DNA from: Dehalococcoidia bacterium
Lineage (GTDB): Bacteria > Chloroflexota > Dehalococcoidia > Plut-88900
Assembly (NCBI GenBank): GCA_965197585.1
Contig: OZ240215.1
Coordinates: 1,376,642 to 1,440,641 of the forward strand
DNA: 64,000 bases
Direction: 5' to 3'
The notes beneath the pieces were generated by a model. It searched no databases. It was not told the DNA's origin and saw only the letters and a list, made by a program, of their open reading frames with translations. Each line of letters starts with the position of its first letter. The first letter of the stretch is position 1. Both the position numbers and the translations under genes were made by a program. Below, in pieces: positions 5,279 to 63,439 of the stretch.

Positions 5279-5851
5279 ATGAGAGCGTTAGCCGCAATAA
5301 GAAAATCAGGCTTCAAGTGGACCCTACTATTGGTCGTACTCGGGACCGTTGCCCTCGCCTGCTCTACGGGCAGCTATCCCGTGGACATTTTCACGGAGAT
5401 GCACTACCAGCAGTCCTACCGTTCCCAGGAACCTCCGCGGCTCTTGACTGCCGAGGGCGCAGTCCCCTTTACCGATGAGTCTATGGCCCTTCGCCCCGCC
5501 GAGCCTGCATCCCAAGGTGAAGCCCTGATTCCAAACCCGATTGAAGCGTCTGCTGATAACCTGGTCCGCGCCCAGCAGGTATTTACCCGCAACTGCTCCA
5601 TGTGCCACGGGGTCTCCGGCGCAAGCGACAGTTTCATATCCGTGACCTTCACCTCCATGGGCATCAAGCCGCCCGCCAACTTCGCAGAGGCCGGTTCCAT
5701 AACGCCCGATGGCAGCTCCGACGGTCTGGCTTTCTGGATCATGACGGACGGGCTCGGAAACATGCCTTCCTTCCGTCACCTCCTCTCCTATGAAGACCGG
5801 TGGGGAGTCATTCACTACCTGCGTGTCCTCTCCCAACAGGCCGGACAGTAG
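5279..5851 (+). CDS. Monoheme c-type cytochrome lipoprotein (ActE-like)
   Basis: Signal peptide with a lipobox (GTVALAC), a single CSMCH heme motif, and a distal Met region GLGNMPSF. Confidence 0.85.
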   Translation: MRALAAIRKSGFKWTLLLVVLGTVALACSTGSYPVDIFTEMHYQQSYRSQEPPRLLTAEGAVPFTDESMALRPAEPASQGEALIPNPIEASADNLVRAQQVFTRNCSMCHGVSGASDSFISVTFTSMGIKPPANFAEAGSITPDGSSDGLAFWIMTDGLGNMPSFRHLLSYEDRWGVIHYLRVLSQQAGQ

Positions 5852-5856
5852 TCCCC

Positions 5857-6438
5857 ATGTCCCGTTTCCAGGGAACGCACACCGGCGGCGTCCGGTTCCC
5901 GACTACTTTTAACGCCGCCCTCAGGATAACCCCGTTCTTAACGGTCATCTTGGCCATCCTTATTGTTCTGTCCGCAGCCGCTTGCGCCACCGAGACCCCA
6001 ACCCTCGAAGAGCGCGCTCAGTCTATTGACCAACGCCTCATGTGTCCCGTCTGTCCCGCAGAGACCATCGACCAGTCCCAGGCAGACGTCGCCATCCAGA
6101 TGCGGGAGCTAGTCCGCGAGAAACTCCGCGCCGGGGAATCCGAAGACCAGATATTCAATTTCTTCGTCGACCGTTATGACAAGGGAGTCCTTGCCGAGCC
6201 TCCCGCAGAAGGCTTTAATATCCTCGTCTGGGTTATCCCACCCTTGGCCTTCCTGTTAGGTCTGGCTCTCATTTGGTTGGGGTTCCGACAGTTGACTCGC
6301 TCCCCGCACCACTTCACCCCCACTTCCGGTGGTGACTGGCAAGCCGATTCTGAAAGCTATCTGAGGGAGATCGACGAAGAGTTCGAAGCCTTCCGGCGCA
6401 CCACAGGCTCCGGCACTGCTCCCGAACACAGCCTTTAA
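5857..6438 (+). CDS. ccmH: Cytochrome c-type biogenesis protein CcmH/NrfF
   Basis: LMCPVCPAETIDQS (CXXC motif of CcmH) plus a C-terminal TM helix. ATG 5857 lies just past the cytochrome c stop, whereas the longer ORF from 5800 would overlap it. Confidence 0.85.
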   Translation: MSRFQGTHTGGVRFPTTFNAALRITPFLTVILAILIVLSAAACATETPTLEERAQSIDQRLMCPVCPAETIDQSQADVAIQMRELVREKLRAGESEDQIFNFFVDRYDKGVLAEPPAEGFNILVWVIPPLAFLLGLALIWLGFRQLTRSPHHFTPTSGGDWQADSESYLREIDEEFEAFRRTTGSGTAPEHSL

Positions 6439-6453
6439 GAGGGAGGTTTAACC

Positions 6454-8454
6454 TTGGCCGAGCTTGGAACCCTATCCCTCTTTTTCGCCCTGATACTAGC
6501 CCTCTACGCTTGCGTGGGCTCGGTATTCGGCGTCCGGAGAAGCCTCCCGGAGCTGGTTACCAGCGCCCGGTACAGCGCCTACCTGACACCCCTCCCTGTA
6601 GCTATCGCTGTTCTCGCCCTGGTGGGCGCTTTCTTGTCTCGGGACTTCGATGTCAAATACGTGGCCGAGCACAGTAACGCGGCTATGTCCCGCGCCTACG
6701 CCTGGGTCGCCTTTTACGCAGGCAACGAAGGGTCAATCCTATTTCTCGCCGTAGCGCTCTCCATCGCTGCGGCTATCGCCCTTGCCTTGGCTCCGAGGCT
6801 CCACCAAGCCAGTCTCGCCTATACCTGCTCAATTATTACGGGAGTCCTCGCCTTCTTCCTGGCCGTACTCGTCTTCCTCGCCAATCCTTTCGAAACTACC
6901 GCCGTCGCCGTCCCCGACGGCCGAGGCATGAACCCCCTTCTCACCCACCCGGGCATGTTCGTGCATCCTCCTATGTTGATGACCGGGCTCGTCACCGTCT
7001 CCATTCCCTTCGCCTTCGCTATGGGTTCCTTGCTCGCAGGTAGGACTGGAGACGAGTGGGTCGATACTGGCAGGACGTGGGCCCTCGTCTCCTGGGGCAT
7101 CCTTGGCACTGGCCTGCTGCTCGGCGGCTGGTGGGCTTACACGATACTGGGGTGGGGTGGATTCTGGGCATGGGATCCCGTGGAGAACGCCGGTTTTATG
7201 CCGTGGCTCGTGCTAACCGCCTTTGTGCATTCGATAATGGTGCAGAAGAGGCGGGGCATGTTCAGAGTGTGGAATATTGCCTTGATCAACGTGGCCTTCA
7301 CATCTTCTCTCCTTGGTATGTTCATCAACCGTGGTGGCCCGACACCCTCGGTCCACTCCTTCGCCGAATCTGTCTTGGGATGGGTGTTTCTCGGCTTCAT
7401 GGTTGTTACCGCACTGTTCTCATTCGGCGTACTTTTCCGCCGCATGTCACTCCTACGCAACGCACAGCAACTGGAATCCAAGCTTTCCAGGGAGACTGCG
7501 TTCCTCGTCAATAATCTCCTCTTCCTTGCTATCGCCTTCGTCATCATCTGGGGGCAGGTCTTTCCCGTTATCTCGGACACCGTGACCGGGGTCTCCATCA
7601 CTGTCGGGGAGCCTTTCTACAACCGGGTCAACGGGCCCCTGCTCCTGGCCGTCGTGTTCCTCATGGGCATCGGGCCCCTCATCCCCTGGCGCCGAGGATC
7701 TTTGACCCAACTCCGTAAAGCTCTGCTAATACCCTTCGCCATCGCACTTGCCGTTGACCTCATCCTCATCGGGTTCGGTATTGCCAAGGCGTTCCCCCTG
7801 CTCGCTGTTGGGCTTTCGGTTGCAGTGGCGGTCGGAATCTTCAGAGAGTGGTACCGTGGAACCAGGGCCCGACACCGCGGCGGCGAATCTTACCCTGTCG
7901 CCTTCCTCCGCCTCATCTCGGCTAACCGACCCCGCTATGGAGGCTATGTTGTCCACCTCGCCATCGTGATGATGGCCCTCGCAATAGTCGGCACCTATTT
8001 CTTTGACACACAGAAGGACGTCCGACTAGCCGAAGGTCAAAGCGCTGAAGCCGCCGGATACACCATCACATATCTCGAAACCGAACAGAGAGACTTTCCG
8101 GACCGCACCCAACGCATAGCAAGCGTGGAAATCTCGGACGCAGACGGCGAGTCTTTAGGCATTTTCAAGCCCGAGCAGTCCTTCTATCCGGCCTTCAGCC
8201 TGAGGCCCGCCCGCGCCGCAATCCGCTCTACCCCCCTGGAGGATGTCTACATCATTCCCAACGATTTCTTCCCCGACGGTACAGTCGGATTCCGCATACT
8301 GGTGAACCCTCTTGTGATGTGGATGTGGGTCGCCGGACCTGTGATGGTCCTCGGCACCCTCATAGCTCTGTGGCCGGGAAGGCGCGCAAGCCGGGCCCCG
8401 GCGCCTGCTCCGACGCCGTCCATAAACCCGGCATACGCGTCGGCATCAAAGTGA
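6454..8454 (+). CDS. ccmF: Cytochrome c heme lyase subunit CcmF
   Basis: 666-aa polytopic protein with the WWD motif region WGGFWAWDPVENAGFMPWL. TTG start lies behind GGGAGG. Confidence 0.92.
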   Translation: MAELGTLSLFFALILALYACVGSVFGVRRSLPELVTSARYSAYLTPLPVAIAVLALVGAFLSRDFDVKYVAEHSNAAMSRAYAWVAFYAGNEGSILFLAVALSIAAAIALALAPRLHQASLAYTCSIITGVLAFFLAVLVFLANPFETTAVAVPDGRGMNPLLTHPGMFVHPPMLMTGLVTVSIPFAFAMGSLLAGRTGDEWVDTGRTWALVSWGILGTGLLLGGWWAYTILGWGGFWAWDPVENAGFMPWLVLTAFVHSIMVQKRRGMFRVWNIALINVAFTSSLLGMFINRGGPTPSVHSFAESVLGWVFLGFMVVTALFSFGVLFRRMSLLRNAQQLESKLSRETAFLVNNLLFLAIAFVIIWGQVFPVISDTVTGVSITVGEPFYNRVNGPLLLAVVFLMGIGPLIPWRRGSLTQLRKALLIPFAIALAVDLILIGFGIAKAFPLLAVGLSVAVAVGIFREWYRGTRARHRGGESYPVAFLRLISANRPRYGGYVVHLAIVMMALAIVGTYFFDTQKDVRLAEGQSAEAAGYTITYLETEQRDFPDRTQRIASVEISDADGESLGIFKPEQSFYPAFSLRPARAAIRSTPLEDVYIIPNDFFPDGTVGFRILVNPLVMWMWVAGPVMVLGTLIALWPGRRASRAPAPAPTPSINPAYASASK

Positions 8455-19148: not shown

Positions 19149-19443
19149 TGTCATCCCGAGGTCCCGCGCTGAAAGTCCGCCGAGGCAGGAGGAATCTCGG
19201 ACTCGCCTCCTCCCGAGGGGAGCCTGTCCGACTAAGGCGGATCATTCCGGCCGCCGAGAACCGGCTATAAGTGCGCCGAGGCGCGAATCCATCCCCAGGG
19301 GCTGAGGGGCCGCTCATCCTGAGCTCCGTCGAAGGGTCGAGCGGGGGACGGCCCACCATGTCAATCCGTCGTGCTTATCTTGACTCCCACCCAACCCTCT
19401 TAACCCCGTCATTCCGAGGCCCCGCGAGGAATCTTGTGTGACG
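19149..19443. repeat. Patch of degenerate GC-rich REP-like palindromic units
   Basis: Related units tgtcatcccgagg...ggaatctcgg (19149-), gctcatcctgagctccgtcgaagggtcgagc (19312-19342) and cgtcattccgaggccccgcgaggaatcttgtgtgacg (19407-19443). Each can form an imperfect hairpin, and no credible ORF is present. Confidence 0.4.
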
Positions 19444-19545
19444 AAGCAGTGATAGAGTTAGGGTCTCGGGGTGCGGCAGGCCGTAGGAATCGTGGTCCTT
19501 CAAGACCGAGCTCTAGCATGGGCCGCCGTACCCTCTCTCATCTAA

Positions 19546-20544
<999 letters not shown>

Positions 20545-20596
20545 GACTTGCCCTCTCACGCCCTTCCTAGCCTTCCTTCCCCTCCCCCTTGGTAAC

Positions 20597-20637
20597 GATA
20601 TATCGGCCATGTTGCTCTGCAACATGGCCGATATATC
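20597..20637. repeat. Perfect 19-bp inverted repeat (hairpin) just downstream of the transposase stop
   Basis: gatatatcggccatgttgc - tct - gcaacatggccgatatatc. No T-tract follows on either strand. Confidence 0.85.
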
Positions 20638-20716
20638 AATAAAACAGGGCGGGTGGGCGGGTACCGATTAAACGGGGTCGGGAGGGGTGTCCCCTTCCAA
20701 ATGTGACACAAACCCC

Positions 20717-20746
20717 TTGACCATACTTGTACACATGTACTATATT
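20717..20746 (+). promoter_or_regulatory. Near-consensus sigma70-like promoter (TTGACC-18-TATATT) driving non-coding element A
   Basis: -35 at 20717-20722 and -10 at 20741-20746. An equivalent promoter sits at the same position in the paralogous element at 51449-51477. Confidence 0.6.
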
Positions 20747-20752
20747 CACCCC

Positions 20753-21340
20753 CGGCTAGCTCGTCACTCACCCTAAACCCAAGGAGGAACCAAAAACCCA
20801 GGGGGAACCCCAGCCCCGGCCCCGAGGACTCAACGTCTAAGCCCATCCCAATGGCCGTCCCGCGGCCTGCGGCTCAAGCAAACGCCGCCATCTCCTCTTC
20901 ACAAGGGCCCCGGCTACCCCTTCCCCCTACTTCCAGGCGATGGAAGGCCCACAGACTATACGCGGCAGGCCCCGTCCAACGACGCCCCTGCCGATTCAAC
21001 GCTTCCCATTACCGGATGCGTTTACCCCGGCCCATTGCGCGCCGGTTTTCCCGGTAGGTCAACCGACCCCCGGTTTAGCAAGGCCCTCGTGTCCTTGTTT
21101 GTCCCGCCGTCCCTGCCATCCGTCTCTACGACCGATGCACCGGGACGCCGGTTCTGAAAGTCCGCCTCAGGCGGCATGTTCCCCGTCAGCGGTCCGGTCA
21201 AGTGCCGCTGCCGGTGGGATCGGCCCCACACAACCCTGACCGCGGCCGACAACGTGTGGGGATAAGCCAGCCCGGCGCCGATGGCCCGGCAACAACCCCC
21301 GGCCTGGATTCTAGTCACGGACCTTCCATCGCCTGCCCCC
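20753..21340 (+). ncRNA. Candidate large structured ncRNA, copy A (unclassified; 3' end uncertain)
   Basis: About 190 nt are conserved with 51484-51680. A hairpin shows compensatory changes, and 20934-20947 is perfectly complementary to 21322-21335. Only Pro/Arg-rich spurious ORFs occur here. Confidence 0.45.
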
Positions 21341-21500
21341 TCCCAAACAAAACCGAGACACCATCACCACATTTCAATAGAACCTGGGAAGCGTAGATCA
21401 TCGCTCCTCATGGAAAGAGGTTCTCCAACTATCGGATATGTACGCACAATTTTGCCCATCCTTGACCCCGCCCCACCCCTGTGCTACAAAGGGGCCGCTT

Positions 21501-51051: not shown

Positions 51052-51322
51052 GATCGTGCACCCCCCGTCGATCAAGTCCCCTTGGCCTGTTGTCCGCCGC
51101 CGGGCTCAGACCAGGCGACCCTACGGCACCCAGAATTGACCGCTTACCGTTGCTTCCTTCCGGACCTGGCGGGGTTCACAGTTTTCTGCCGCGTAGGACC
51201 CAATCTTCAGCGCCCGCCGAACGGGTACAGCGTCCGAAGGTCCAGGACCTCTAGGGGGAATTCAGTCCCGCTTTAGCGGATTGCGGGTTCAGGGCACCGC
51301 TAGCTCCCCACCTAGCACGACC
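51052..51322 (-). ncRNA. ffs: Signal recognition particle RNA, long (Bacillus-type, Alu-domain-containing) form
   Basis: The minus strand reads GGUCGUGCUAGGUGGGGAGCUAGCGGUGCCCUGAACCCGCAAUCCGCU... The domain IV core is CCAGGUCCGGAAGGAAGCAACGG, and the sequence continues ...GAUCGACGGGGGGUGCACGAUC. It is collinear with B. subtilis scRNA (271 nt). The 5' GGUCGUGC pairs with the 3' GCACGAUC. Confidence 0.9.
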
Positions 51323-51329
51323 TGGACAT

Positions 51330-51358
51330 ATGTTATTTGACGCCCATTCCGGTGTCAA
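51330..51358 (-). promoter_or_regulatory. sigma70-like promoter of the SRP RNA gene (TTGACA-17-TAACAT)
   Basis: On the minus strand, -35 TTGACA is at 51358-51353 and -10 TAACAT at 51335-51330. The predicted start, about 7 nt downstream, coincides with the SRP RNA 5' end. Confidence 0.65.
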
Positions 51359-51448
51359 TTAAAAGACGGATATGTGACAGCGCGTGTCTCGGTAGCTGAG
51401 CGCCCCGCCAAAATGATCCCGTTCACATAGAGGGGTGACATATCCCCC

Positions 51449-51477
51449 TTGACTTTATAAGACAGGTGTTCTATTAT
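51449..51477 (+). promoter_or_regulatory. Near-consensus sigma70-like promoter (TTGACT-17-TATTAT) driving non-coding element B
   Basis: -35 at 51449-51454 and -10 at 51472-51477. It is homologous in position to the promoter at 20717-20746. Confidence 0.6.
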
Positions 51478-51483
51478 TGGGCC

Positions 51484-52135
51484 AGTCTAGACCCGACACT
51501 CACCTTAAGGAGGTAACCACAACCCAGGGAAGCCCACCCGGCCCCACCCGAGGACTCAACGTCTAAGCCCATCCCAAAGGGCGGCCCACAAGCCGCCCCA
51601 CGGCTCAAGCAAACGACGCCATCTCCTCATCCCCACCGGGTCCCGTGCACCCTTCCCTGACCCCCAGGCGATGGAAAGACGCCCTGGTTCGCTATCGTTC
51701 CATGTGAACCCCCTCTAAGACGCTTCAGCCTCTTACAGGGAAAATCTCCCTTGGGAGTAACCTGCTCTTTAGAGCGGAATTGCAGTCGGATAGGCCCGGC
51801 GCCGAGGTCCTCTCGGTGCCCCGACTGCTCAATAAAGCCGGGAGCCGGTGGTCCCTGCGCTCCGGGTCGCACCGGCAAACTTGGACACATTACACCTGCA
51901 AGAGGCTCACGCCGGACGCTGGACGAGCCTCCTTGCCGCCCTTATGCGGTGCAGCCAACCCCCGGAGTCGGGCTCGGACCTGCTGGCCCTGTCGGTCCCT
52001 TCCCATGTCCAGCGTATACAGGGCCACAGGCCGCAGCAGCGGCAAAAGCGGGCCGGACGCCCTTGCCCCGGGGCGTCGGAGCACCCGAAGCACATGAACG
52101 GGGGCATCGTCCAGCAAGCGTCTTCCATCGTCAAC
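51484..52135 (+). ncRNA. Candidate large structured ncRNA, copy B (unclassified; 3' end uncertain)
   Basis: Its 5' domain is homologous to 20765-20947. A long-range helix pairs 51669-51682 with 52118-52130. The 1.0-kb gap has no credible ORF. Confidence 0.45.
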
Positions 52136-52495
52136 CCAAAACCCAACAGACAGAACTGAAACCGAACCCCCACAATCGAAGATGCTGCAAGTCCGTCGTA
52201 GGCGGGGAACATCCTCCTCTGGAGGATCCGCCACTGGAGGACTGAAGAAAAGGCCAGTGTGTCACTAATCTGCCGAACGAGTACACTCAATTGAGCCGGA
52301 GTCCCATTTGTGATAACCTAGCGCCCGTCGGGGCTTGGAACCATTGGCCCGGGAAAGCGACGTCAGACAAGCAATACTACGGTTATTTCCTCGCAATTCC
52401 TCCTCCAAGCGGACCTTACCCGACAGGCGAAAGCCAACTACAGCTGAATCCGGCGTTGCGCCAGGTTCAGACTCACATCATGATGGGGTAAGGCA

Positions 52496-53569
52496 TTGGC
52501 TAAGGCCGGAAGGCTAGCCGGTAGCGTCATAGGCGCAATAGTGGCCGCCCTGCTGGGGCTGGGCATCGGCCTTTCTCTTTCAGAAGCCGGCATATTCGAA
52601 GGCTGGAACACCTGGATAACCCTTGGCGCGAGCGTTCTGGGATTTGGGTTTGGACTAATTGCCACCGCCCTTGTAATCATCCCTGGAGTGCAAAGGGCAG
52701 CCGGGAGCCTCTCGTCCCTTCGGCCGGAAGTTGCCTTCTCGGGGACCGTAGGTGCACTGGTCGGAGTAGTCCTCTCAGGCGTCTTGATCTACGCCTTTGC
52801 GGTGGCATCTCTTGCCTACCCCTGGAATGCCATAACCCCCGGCCTGCTGGTGCTCACACTGGCTGGCCTCGGGGGCTGGGCCAGTGCATCCAGGGCCACA
52901 CAGGTGATCTCCATGCTCGCCCGAGGCACTATCCCGGAAAGGGTCGCCGCCCCGGCATCCGTTAACGGGGCACAGAACGGGCGCTGCATCCTTGTCGACA
53001 CGTCCGCGATCATCGATGGACGCATCGCCGAGATCACCCACACCGGTTTCGTAGACGGCGATCTTCTCATACCTCGATTCGTTCTGGAAGAACTCCAGTA
53101 CGTCGCAGATTCCCCGGACAGCCTCAAGCGCAATAGAGGCCGCAGGGGTCTCGACGTCCTCAACCAACTCCAGAAAGACAGTAACGTGGAAGTCCAGATT
53201 ACCGAGATCGACGTCCCCGACCAGGACGGCGTCGACAGCAAGCTCGTGAGCCTGGCAAAACGCTCCGATTACTCACTCCTCACCACCGACTTCAACCTGA
53301 ACAAGGTCGCCGAGCTTCAGGGCATCAGGGTTCTCAACATCAACGACCTTGCCAACTCCCTTAAACCAACGCTCATACCCGGTGAGGAGCTGAATCTCCA
53401 CATCACCCAGGAGGGCAAGGAGGAGACCCAGGGAGTCGGGTTCCTGGACGACGGCACCATGGTAGTCGTCGAGGGAGGTCACAAATACCTGAACTCCCAG
53501 CTGCCGGTGGTAATCACGCGGGTGCTGCAAACCTCGGCGGGCCGGATAATCTTCGCCCACTTGAAATAG
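52496..53569 (+). CDS. Membrane-anchored PIN/TRAM-domain protein (YacL-like)
   Basis: N-terminal TM helices, a PIN domain (ILVDTSAIIDGRI..., LTTDFNL), and a C-terminal TRAM-like domain. It lies upstream of ispD-ispF, as yacL does in Firmicutes. Confidence 0.8.
   Translation: MAKAGRLAGSVIGAIVAALLGLGIGLSLSEAGIFEGWNTWITLGASVLGFGFGLIATALVIIPGVQRAAGSLSSLRPEVAFSGTVGALVGVVLSGVLIYAFAVASLAYPWNAITPGLLVLTLAGLGGWASASRATQVISMLARGTIPERVAAPASVNGAQNGRCILVDTSAIIDGRIAEITHTGFVDGDLLIPRFVLEELQYVADSPDSLKRNRGRRGLDVLNQLQKDSNVEVQITEIDVPDQDGVDSKLVSLAKRSDYSLLTTDFNLNKVAELQGIRVLNINDLANSLKPTLIPGEELNLHITQEGKEETQGVGFLDDGTMVVVEGGHKYLNSQLPVVITRVLQTSAGRIIFAHLK

Positions 53570-63363: not shown

Positions 63364-63439
<76 letters not shown>

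Follow-up and report, generated by a model that had tools for sequence, protein, structure and literature searches.

A transposon-like non-coding cassette family of Dehalococcoidia that probably expresses a large structured RNA

We analyzed a 64,000-nt stretch of a Dehalococcoidia bacterium genome (Chloroflexota; assembly GCA_965197585.1, contig OZ240215.1, positions 1,376,642 to 1,440,641 of the forward strand), hereafter the window, which harbors two copies, A and B, of a large non-coding element. As predicted from sequence, the element is probably a cassette resembling miniature inverted-repeat transposable elements (MITEs), mobilized in trans, which expresses an autonomous and stable structured non-coding RNA (ncRNA). 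The family to which both copies belong is previously undescribed and combines features of known kinds of element; literature searches found no description of such an element.

Copy B, at 51415-52291, is a discrete 877-bp insertion with base-precise junctions. It lies between genes for an amidohydrolase and for a PIN-domain protein (homologs are named YacL or PIN/TRAM domain-containing protein), the latter followed by ispD; judged by their sequences, these flanking genes mark the window as a Dehalococcoidia-like Chloroflexota genome. The locus was compared with those of four syntenic relatives (comparison loci are numbered with the prefix L; here L001, L002, L003 and L005), whose YacL proteins range from 95% to about 74% identity. 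Gene order was the same in all four, with an amidohydrolase-yacL gap of ~560-650 bp there versus 1470 bp here, and copy B was missing from the intergenic site between yacL and the signal recognition particle (SRP) RNA in each of them. In the alignment, homology to L001 ended at 51414 and restarted at 52289-52292. The empty site in L001 consisted of CCCCCAAAAT joined directly to TGAGCCGG, and AAAATTGA was present at the site in all four relatives. The ends of copy B are uncertain by about 3 nt, with AAT occurring at both junctions. The landmarks of copy B, together with copy A, are listed below in window coordinates.

20690-21452, plus strand: copy A, of the same family; promoter TTGACC at 20717-20722 and TATATT at 20741-20746; closing helix of 20934-20950 with 21319-21335
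51410-51414, no strand: left 5-bp duplication-like flank, AAAAT, by comparison with the right flank
51414-51445, plus strand: left terminal inverted repeat TGATCCCGTTCACATAGAGGGGTGACATATCC; homology in L011 and L031 starts exactly here
51415-52291, plus strand: whole inserted element, copy B, 877 bp, from the homology break against L001
51449-51477, plus strand: promoter of copy B, TTGACT-17 nt-TATTAT, with a predicted transcription start near 51484
51479-51668, plus strand: 5' domain of the copy B RNA, by alignment and a covariance model match at 51473-51691 (170 bits)
51479-51494, plus strand: 5' hairpin P1, inside the 5' domain
51507-51513, plus strand: AAGGAGG, unpaired and with no start codon after it, inside the 5' domain
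51550-51574, plus strand: invariant block GAGGACUCAACGUCUAAGCCCAUCC of the 5' domain
51579-51598, plus strand: hairpin P3, GGGCGGC-CCACAA-GCCGCCC, at a fixed position in the copies and with compensated pairs
51601-51615, plus strand: invariant block CGGCUCAAGCAAACG of the 5' domain
51618-51628, plus strand: invariant block GCCAUCUCCUC of the 5' domain
51667-51682, plus strand: long-range closing helix, 5' strand, GGCGAUGGAA(A)GACGC, by helix covariation
51683-52117, plus strand: variable core of the B-like subfamily, 435 nt, non-coding, multi-hairpin in the consensus fold
52118-52132, plus strand: long-range closing helix, 3' strand, GCGUCUUCCAUCGUC, whose outer end includes a G.U pair
52133-52190, plus strand: unstructured tail, C/A-rich and G/U-poor in composition
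52191-52256, plus strand: extra 3' module of B-type copies, an inverted repeat with hairpins at 52201-52232 that resemble repetitive extragenic palindromes (REP)
52257-52286, plus strand: right terminal inverted repeat GTGTGTCACTAATCTGCCGAACGAGTACAC, recurring in L011, L012, L014 and L031, and in L034 in a one-mismatch version
52287-52291, no strand: right 5-bp duplication-like flank, TCAAT, by comparison with the left flank

A first-pass annotation, made from the window sequence alone, had placed copy B at 51430-52300, almost the same span as the insertion, and had described it as a second copy of the large non-coding element, sharing promoter and 5' domain with copy A. This was borne out: positions 51435-51676 matched 20703-20945, the 5' domain of copy A, with 72% identity over 255 nt (E 1.5e-28), and a covariance model of the 5' domain scored 214 bits for copy A and 170 bits for copy B, with the rest of the 64-kb window at noise level. 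The promoter described for copy B was likewise present, with TTGACT at 51449-51454, a 17-nt spacer and TATTAT at 51472-51477. It agrees with the consensus at 10 of 12 positions and is the sole plus-strand promoter-like site that a consensus scan detected in 51300-52600. The only other site found by that scan, on the minus strand, is the SRP RNA promoter (TTGACA-17-TAACAT at 51358-51330), which lies directly upstream of the SRP RNA confirmed by Rfam at 51054-51320 on the minus strand (RF01854, 187 bits). The two promoters do stand back to back, as had been noted, with their -35 boxes ~95 bp apart; since copy B is an insertion, however, this position is an accident of landing and not a functional arrangement.

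The remaining landmarks of the earlier description also hold. The closing helix CGAUGGAA/UUCCAUCG corresponds to CGATGGAA at 51669-51676 and TTCCATCG at 52123-52130, followed by a bulged A at 51677 and then by GACGC at 51678-51682 with GCGTC at 52118-52122 (GACGC/GCGUC in the RNA). It encloses a core whose length, given as about 435 nt, is exactly that (51683-52117); the local hairpin GGCGCCGAG-GTCCT-CTCGGTGCC was located in it at about 51798-51820, and the hairpin at 52201-52232 is present in the 3' module.

Beyond the window, we found the element in four related Dehalococcoidia genomes and one metagenome, which amounts to a family of ~29 members. A scan with the 18-mer GACTCAACGTCTAAGCCC, covering one genome per species, recovered 23 true copies in four Dehalococcoidia metagenome-assembled genomes (5, 10, 8 and 1 each), while four further matches were due to chance; L035 contributes one more copy beyond the 23. 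The related complete or near-complete genomes are OZ244800.1, OY760104.1, CBDFLQ01 and CBDCTF01. A metagenome scan with an anchor independent of the 18-mer (GCCATCTCCTC, a gap, and GCGATGGAAG) yielded 55 matches, of which three were true members, all from one assembly. Plasmid and phage collections held no relatives of the element, and two 16-mer matches on viral contigs were dismissed as chance. The few metagenome members, together with the negative plasmid and phage searches, indicate that the family is narrowly distributed.

All copies share one order of parts: a GTGACAC box, the promoter, the 5' domain, a long-range helix enclosing the core, and the tail. The promoter, TTGAC(C/T), 17-18 nt and TA(T/C)(T/A)AT, is near-consensus for sigma-70 and is kept in every copy. 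In the 5' domain of ~215 nt, invariant blocks (AAGGAGG; GAGGACTCAACGTCTAAGCCCATCC; CGGC(T/A)CAAGCGAACG; GCCATCTCCTC; GGCGATGGAAG) alternate with variable segments, and in no copy of the alignment does a start codon follow the AAGGAGG. The long-range helix spans 13-18 bp, the cores measure 213-441 nt and fall into several unrelated subfamilies, and the tail of ~50-60 nt averages 42% C, 38% A, 11% G and 10% T over the copies. No intrinsic terminator was found in the element. These dimensions give a predicted RNA of 530-750 nt within whole cassettes of 0.65-0.9 kb. REP-like hairpin insertions occur in the 5' domain of L032, in A-like cores and in the core of L026, and L011 and L031 have lost part of the extra 3' module of the B-type copies.

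Imperfect inverted repeats and duplication-like 5-bp direct repeats appear to delimit the B subfamily. Copies B, L011 and L031, which lie at unrelated loci, all start with TGATCCCGTTCAC and end with GAACGA(A/G)T(A/G)CA, so that the termini of the type can be written as TGATCCCGTTCAC...GAACGAGTACA; the right end was also found in L012 and L014 and, with one mismatch, in L034. The two ends align with each other as TG..C.CGTTC...AGA...GTGACA.A, the tips matching at 8 of 11 positions in addition to the GTGACA box. The flanking 5-bp repeats are perfect in L011 (CCCCT/CCCCT, 5/5) and in L031 (TTGCT/TTGCT, 5/5). Terminal repeats were not evident in most other copies and were not reported by the repeat finder. 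A C-rich direct repeat of 17 nt, CCTTTCCCCTCCCCCCA, stands on both sides of the copy in L034; L018 and L015 show C-rich direct repeats of 9-11 nt, and similar C-rich sequence occurs in the right flank of L011. The C-rich repeats at L034, L018 and L015 do not fit a simple 5-bp duplication and suggest a preferred C-rich target or, for some copies, another route of insertion.

Copies are gained, lost and exchanged among close relatives, and turnover is fast. In addition to the empty sites described for copy B, copy A is missing from the orthologous intergenic region between the DAO and CoA-ligase genes of L036 and L037, where flank homology restarts at ~21455. In L035, flanks 94.5-100% identical to the window enclose a different variant at the site of copy A, with a 5' domain of 80.5% identity and a core that differs. 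Similarly, at the orthologous loci L012 and L022, the neighbor gene is 92% and the 5' domain 87% identical, and the cores are unalignable at 47%. Across the family, 5' domains are 69-100% identical (median 80%). The core of copy B is 83% identical to that of L011 and ~72% identical to those of L020, L026, L029 and L030, and it is unrelated to the A-like cores, in agreement with the earlier description of a core that diverges apart from short shared islands. That description also correctly recognized two diverged copies at unrelated loci; what it overlooked is the apparent mobility of the element, which explains why the loci are unrelated.

Comparison of the copies revealed RNA-type structure that is kept by compensatory substitution. 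The closing helix was found in ~20 of the 22 complete copies, at -31 to -44 kcal/mol, and 85.7% of its cells were paired, as against 26-55% when the partners were slid. Doubly changed cells numbered 20, compared with 8.0 +/- 1.9 in shuffles, a count reached by none of 500. In these 22 copies, three positions were fully compensated (GACGC/GCGUC versus GGUCC/GGACC) and seven cells were G.U, and the helix occurred in two mutually compensated versions, GAAGACGC...GCGUCUUC and GAAGGUCC...GGACCUUC. The covariation originally read from two copies only, GACGC/GCGUC in copy B and GG/CC in copy A, is part of a family-wide pattern of compensatory change.

In the 5' domain, folding each copy independently gave five helices: P1, P3 and the nested long-range helices Ha, Hb and Hc. 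The position of P3 is fixed, yet its stem takes at least eight different sequences in 27 copies; five of its seven pairs are compensated, and its mean z versus shuffles is -2.7. In a sequence-only alignment, the 5' domain helices were 86.8% paired versus 43-53% with slid partners, and covariation was modest, the count of doubly changed cells being reached by 4 of 500 shuffles. In the covariance-model alignment of 28 distinct members, these values rose to 92.3% versus 41-52%, with 15 of 28 pairs doubly changed (five of eight compensated in Hb) and 48 doubly changed cells against 12.2 +/- 2.9 in shuffles (0/500). As the latter alignment leans towards the model, the truth lies between its count and the sequence-only count. 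Helix Hc (GAGGA/UCCUC) is invariant and so carries no covariation information. Default RNAalifold on a MAFFT alignment of the 5' domain returned a poor structure because length-variable hairpins were misaligned, and it was replaced by the per-copy folds and the covariance-model alignment. The cores fold as consistent multi-hairpin structures, from few independent sequences, and the full-length fold of copy B had a z of -3.7 on the plus strand and -2.3 on the minus strand. With more homologs at hand, the closing helix proposed in the first-pass annotation is maintained beyond what the controls give.

No copy carries a protein gene. Nor do genes for a transposase, recombinase or reverse transcriptase turn up repeatedly beside the copies, the neighbors that recur being expanded metabolic paralog families. 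The absence of a credible open reading frame (ORF), already noted for copy B, was confirmed by substitutions spread ~1:1:1 over codon positions and by indels that break the frame; in particular, the 1:1:1 ratio was seen among the B-like copies, and no frame is open in all copies. Pfam returned nothing for a 164-aa ORF. A 194-aa stop-free frame of copy B matched only nine clusters among 1.84 billion proteins, and these were P/R/A/G-rich ORFs running through the 5' domain of other copies, which makes them miscalled. Public gene calls contain 'proteins' of 67-255 aa translated from element copies, one of them running across the invariant 5' domain; these are spurious annotations. A decayed protein gene was accordingly rejected by Pfam, codon statistics and the protein search. 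A mobile-element remnant with protein homology had been raised beforehand as an alternative to an RNA, and one half of it was found: the element is apparently mobile, and protein homology is absent.

The element did not correspond to a known RNA either. Searches of the element in the window and of 18 further loci with copies, at gathering and permissive thresholds, found no Rfam family that attained its gathering score; the best match in 51300-52600 was an unrelated flavivirus motif with 21.6 bits against a gathering score of 43. No tRNA- or tmRNA-like modules were found in the element, and there was no match to intron domain V/VI. A sponge of the Csr type was considered and set aside, GGA being enriched 1.4-fold only, which was unconvincing. 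The claim that the RNA is autonomous and not a gene-specific leader was upheld, whereas action in trans, proposed there as well, would be one possibility. The copies are followed by genes that have nothing in common: they represent eight different Pfam families (DAO, CCG-domain, enoyl-CoA hydratase, ornithine cyclodeaminase, ATP-grasp, transglutaminase-like and arginase among others), and according to rough ORF calls the orientation to the next gene is the same in roughly 14 of 22 copies and opposite in about 8. A riboswitch or gene-specific 5' leader was rejected for lack of a conserved downstream gene class and for this mixed orientation.

Just upstream of copy A lies a complete-looking insertion sequence (IS) of the IS110 family (19435-20540, plus strand, 1106 bp), with an ORF at 19597-20544 that contains DEDD_Tnp_IS110 and Transposase_20 domains; the expected place of its bridge RNA is the 160-nt non-coding 5' part, 19435-19596. 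That the element might be part of this IS, along the lines of a bridge RNA, was rejected: L025 has the left flank of copy A without the IS, tblastn with the IS110 transposase gave no match in 23 loci, and both in the window and in L035 the IS sits in REP-like repeats. Because the same flank is uninterrupted in L025, the IS110 next to copy A must have inserted separately. It entered at a CT dinucleotide within the REP-like repeat GTCATTCCGAGG...CGAGGAATCT, the uninterrupted site being that of L025. In L035, this locus has a different IS110 copy (68-80% nucleotide identity), which sits in another REP-like repeat.

The REP-like repeats in question form a cluster at 19150-19434 (CTCATCCTGAGC...CGAAGGGTCGAGCGGGG, GTCATTCCGAGG...CGAGGAATCT and GTCCGNC...GGCGGA hairpins), which is found again at many loci of related genomes, frequently directly upstream of a copy of the element. 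The 150 bp between the IS110 and copy A (20541-20690) are 81% identical to the left flank of L025, from another genome. They include a perfect ~20-bp stem at 20598-20637, GATATATCGGCCATGTTGC...GCAACATGGCCGATATATC, which in L025 reads CAGCCGTG...CACGGCTG with two compensated changes; this segment may belong to a longer left arm of the copy A subfamily, or it may be a terminator or a further small RNA. A mini-hairpin of ~22 nt, (G)AAAGTCCGCCTCAGGCGGC, was found at ~21163-21186 in the core of copy A and also in the L032 5' domain and the L026 core. It is absent at the same position in L016 and L028 and resembles the generic REP hairpin of the genome, and it may be a tiny mobile hairpin which inserts into the element.

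With regard to housekeeping RNA genes, the element copy of L029 (genome CBDCTF01) is located ~110 nt upstream of a tmRNA gene and co-oriented with it, with the RNase P RNA 3.5 kb away (L029 coordinates 1554-1900 on the minus strand and 5465-6230 and 6343-6695 on the plus strand). This copy near tmRNA and copy B near SRP RNA may reflect a preference for regions of housekeeping RNA genes, or chance. The window also contains a tRNA gene at 63364-63436 (plus strand).

The following mechanism would be consistent with these observations. A DDE-type transposase encoded elsewhere would move the cassettes in trans, as with MITEs, and would make the 5-bp duplications. From the near-consensus sigma-70 promoter just inside the left end, a plus-strand RNA of about 530-750 nt would be transcribed, starting at ~51484 in the case of copy B and near 20752 in the case of copy A. 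P1 and the exposed AAGGAGG without a start codon could act as a 5' stabilizer of the STAB-SD type. The three nested helices and P3 would hold four invariant, mostly unpaired blocks in a junction, the likely functional or ligand-binding site of the RNA. A helix of 13-18 bp would close off the core, which seems to tolerate insertions and to be replaced wholesale by recombination among copies. The C/A-rich, G-poor tail may be a Rho-loading site, a reading suggested because no intrinsic terminator is present. The RNA itself would serve as a scaffold for a protein partner or be needed for persistence of the cassette, and would not be the leader of a neighbor gene. An invariant junction combined with a swappable periphery argues that the RNA is being preserved in addition to the DNA ends.

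A bolder version, to which we assign a small probability, is that the element works through its RNA: a cis or trans guide, a ribozyme or a primer for mobility or retention, acting with a protein encoded elsewhere, or else a new large ornate RNA class in which the 5' junction would be a catalytic or binding platform and the core an exchangeable specificity module. It would explain why the invariant junction and the closing helix are kept while cores are swapped.

Several observations weigh against a mobile cassette with a plus-strand RNA. Neither the window nor 92 loci yielded a cognate transposase or an autonomous parent IS sharing the termini of the element. The terminal repeats are weak (18/32, with one gap), both ends are seen in B, L011 and L031 only, and the duplication of copy B itself (AAAAT/TCAAT) matches at 3 of 5 positions only; most copies outside the B subfamily border on REP-like or C-rich repeats, and their ends are not definable. 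In addition, L012, L022 and L032 hold the element at one shared locus in three genomes, upstream of a lutA-like gene, which indicates that some copies are old residents and suits a host gene family as well as it suits a transposon. As for the strand, A.C is at least as frequent as G.U in the core, a strand-symmetric count does not favor the plus strand, and in absolute terms the G-rich minus strand has the lower folding energy; the count of G.U versus A.C is confounded by the C/A-rich composition. Assignment to the plus strand rests mainly on the conserved promoter, with additional weight from its better z-score and from wobble pairs of P3 and the closing helix, and should be read as a prediction.

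A non-mobile family of paralogous host ncRNA genes, whose presence or absence and core swapping would come from homologous recombination, gene conversion and deletion in REP-rich regions, appears unlikely. The shared lutA-like locus speaks for it, as do a 5' domain conserved about like the neighbor genes (87% vs 92%), the REP-like repeats, rather than clear terminal repeats, that flank most copies, and the failure to find a transposase. Such a family does not account, however, for the base-precise presence of copy B in a REP-free site that is intact in four relatives of graded distance, nor for three B-type copies at unrelated loci which share both termini and 5-bp direct repeats, and 5-10 or more near-redundant copies per 3-Mb genome would be unusual for a host regulatory RNA. 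We consider it improbable that the cassette is instead a mobile promoter or cis-regulatory unit which reads through into, or insulates, the downstream gene and whose RNA body is incidental. The strong conserved promoter, the lack of an internal intrinsic terminator and the co-orientation of roughly 14 of 22 copies, with copy B pointing into yacL, are in line with this idea. Against it, invariant blocks and compensated helices over ~650 nt of RNA would be superfluous for a promoter, about eight copies face the opposite way, the downstream genes keep their own promoter regions (TTGTA(C/A)...TATAAT in the lutA flank; an intact 52292-52495 before yacL), and the C/A-rich tail suggests that Rho would end transcription ahead of the next gene. 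That the element is the decayed remnant of an insertion sequence or a pseudogene, with no RNA function and conserved through recent amplification only, is highly improbable. Such a remnant would fit a multi-copy, mobile-element-like distribution, the long frames without a stop codon (194 aa in copy B) and the proteins that gene callers have placed on other copies, yet codon-position ratios of 1:1:1, frame-breaking indels and the lack of a real protein family among 1.84 billion representatives contradict it. Moreover, 5' domains that have diverged to a median of 80% identity still retain their invariant blocks and compensated helices, which is a pattern of selection and not of recent copying.

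The MITE-like cassette with a structured RNA, which we favor, shares traits with several known systems. Typical MITEs measure 100-400 bp, and the Correia elements of Neisseria are a promoter-carrying, non-autonomous example. Like these, the element is multi-copy and intergenic, lacks a transposase gene, shows filled and empty sites and has a built-in sigma-70 promoter, and its B subfamily has imperfect terminal inverted repeats and short duplication-like flanks that recall those of MITEs. Unlike MITEs, it measures 650-880 bp, that is, two to five times more, and no parent IS is known; about 215 nt of its interior and the long-range helix are under structure-preserving selection, and its core is modular. 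With OLE, GOLLD, ROOL and raiA, which are sometimes associated with mobile DNA, it has in common a length of 500-800 nt, non-coding character, many helices, conserved junction sequences, variable peripheral domains closed by conserved helices and a lineage-restricted occurrence. It differs from them in having no Rfam match, 5-10 or more copies per genome, transposon-like ends and a core exchanged between unrelated subfamilies. As in the IS110 bridge RNA, the omega RNA (HEARO) of IS200/IS605 and group II introns, a structured RNA lies within a mobile element and is conserved together with it, but no recombinase, TnpB/IscB or reverse transcriptase adjoins the copies, and, unlike IS110, IS605 and introns, the element shows, in its B subfamily, duplication-like flanks and imperfect inverted termini. 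Finally, STAB-SD sequences are 5' stabilizers of Firmicutes mRNAs such as cryIIIA and ermC; the perfect, Shine-Dalgarno-like AAGGAGG, placed about 25-30 nt into the predicted RNA behind a 5' hairpin and not followed by a start codon, resembles them, a likeness limited to this one sub-feature.

Non-autonomous bacterial transposons are usually regarded as inert DNA between two ends, and large structured bacterial RNAs are rare and mostly without a known function. The family described here joins both, as the cassette behaves as a transposon and its interior evolves as a functional RNA gene with modular domains. At the least, the element should be masked or annotated in Dehalococcoidia metagenome-assembled genomes, in which gene callers predict spurious proteins from it. 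If it is transcribed as predicted, it would represent a new class of large ncRNA from a poorly studied phylum, and its many paralogs with exchangeable cores would offer a natural system for the study of RNA function and of the spread of RNA genes.

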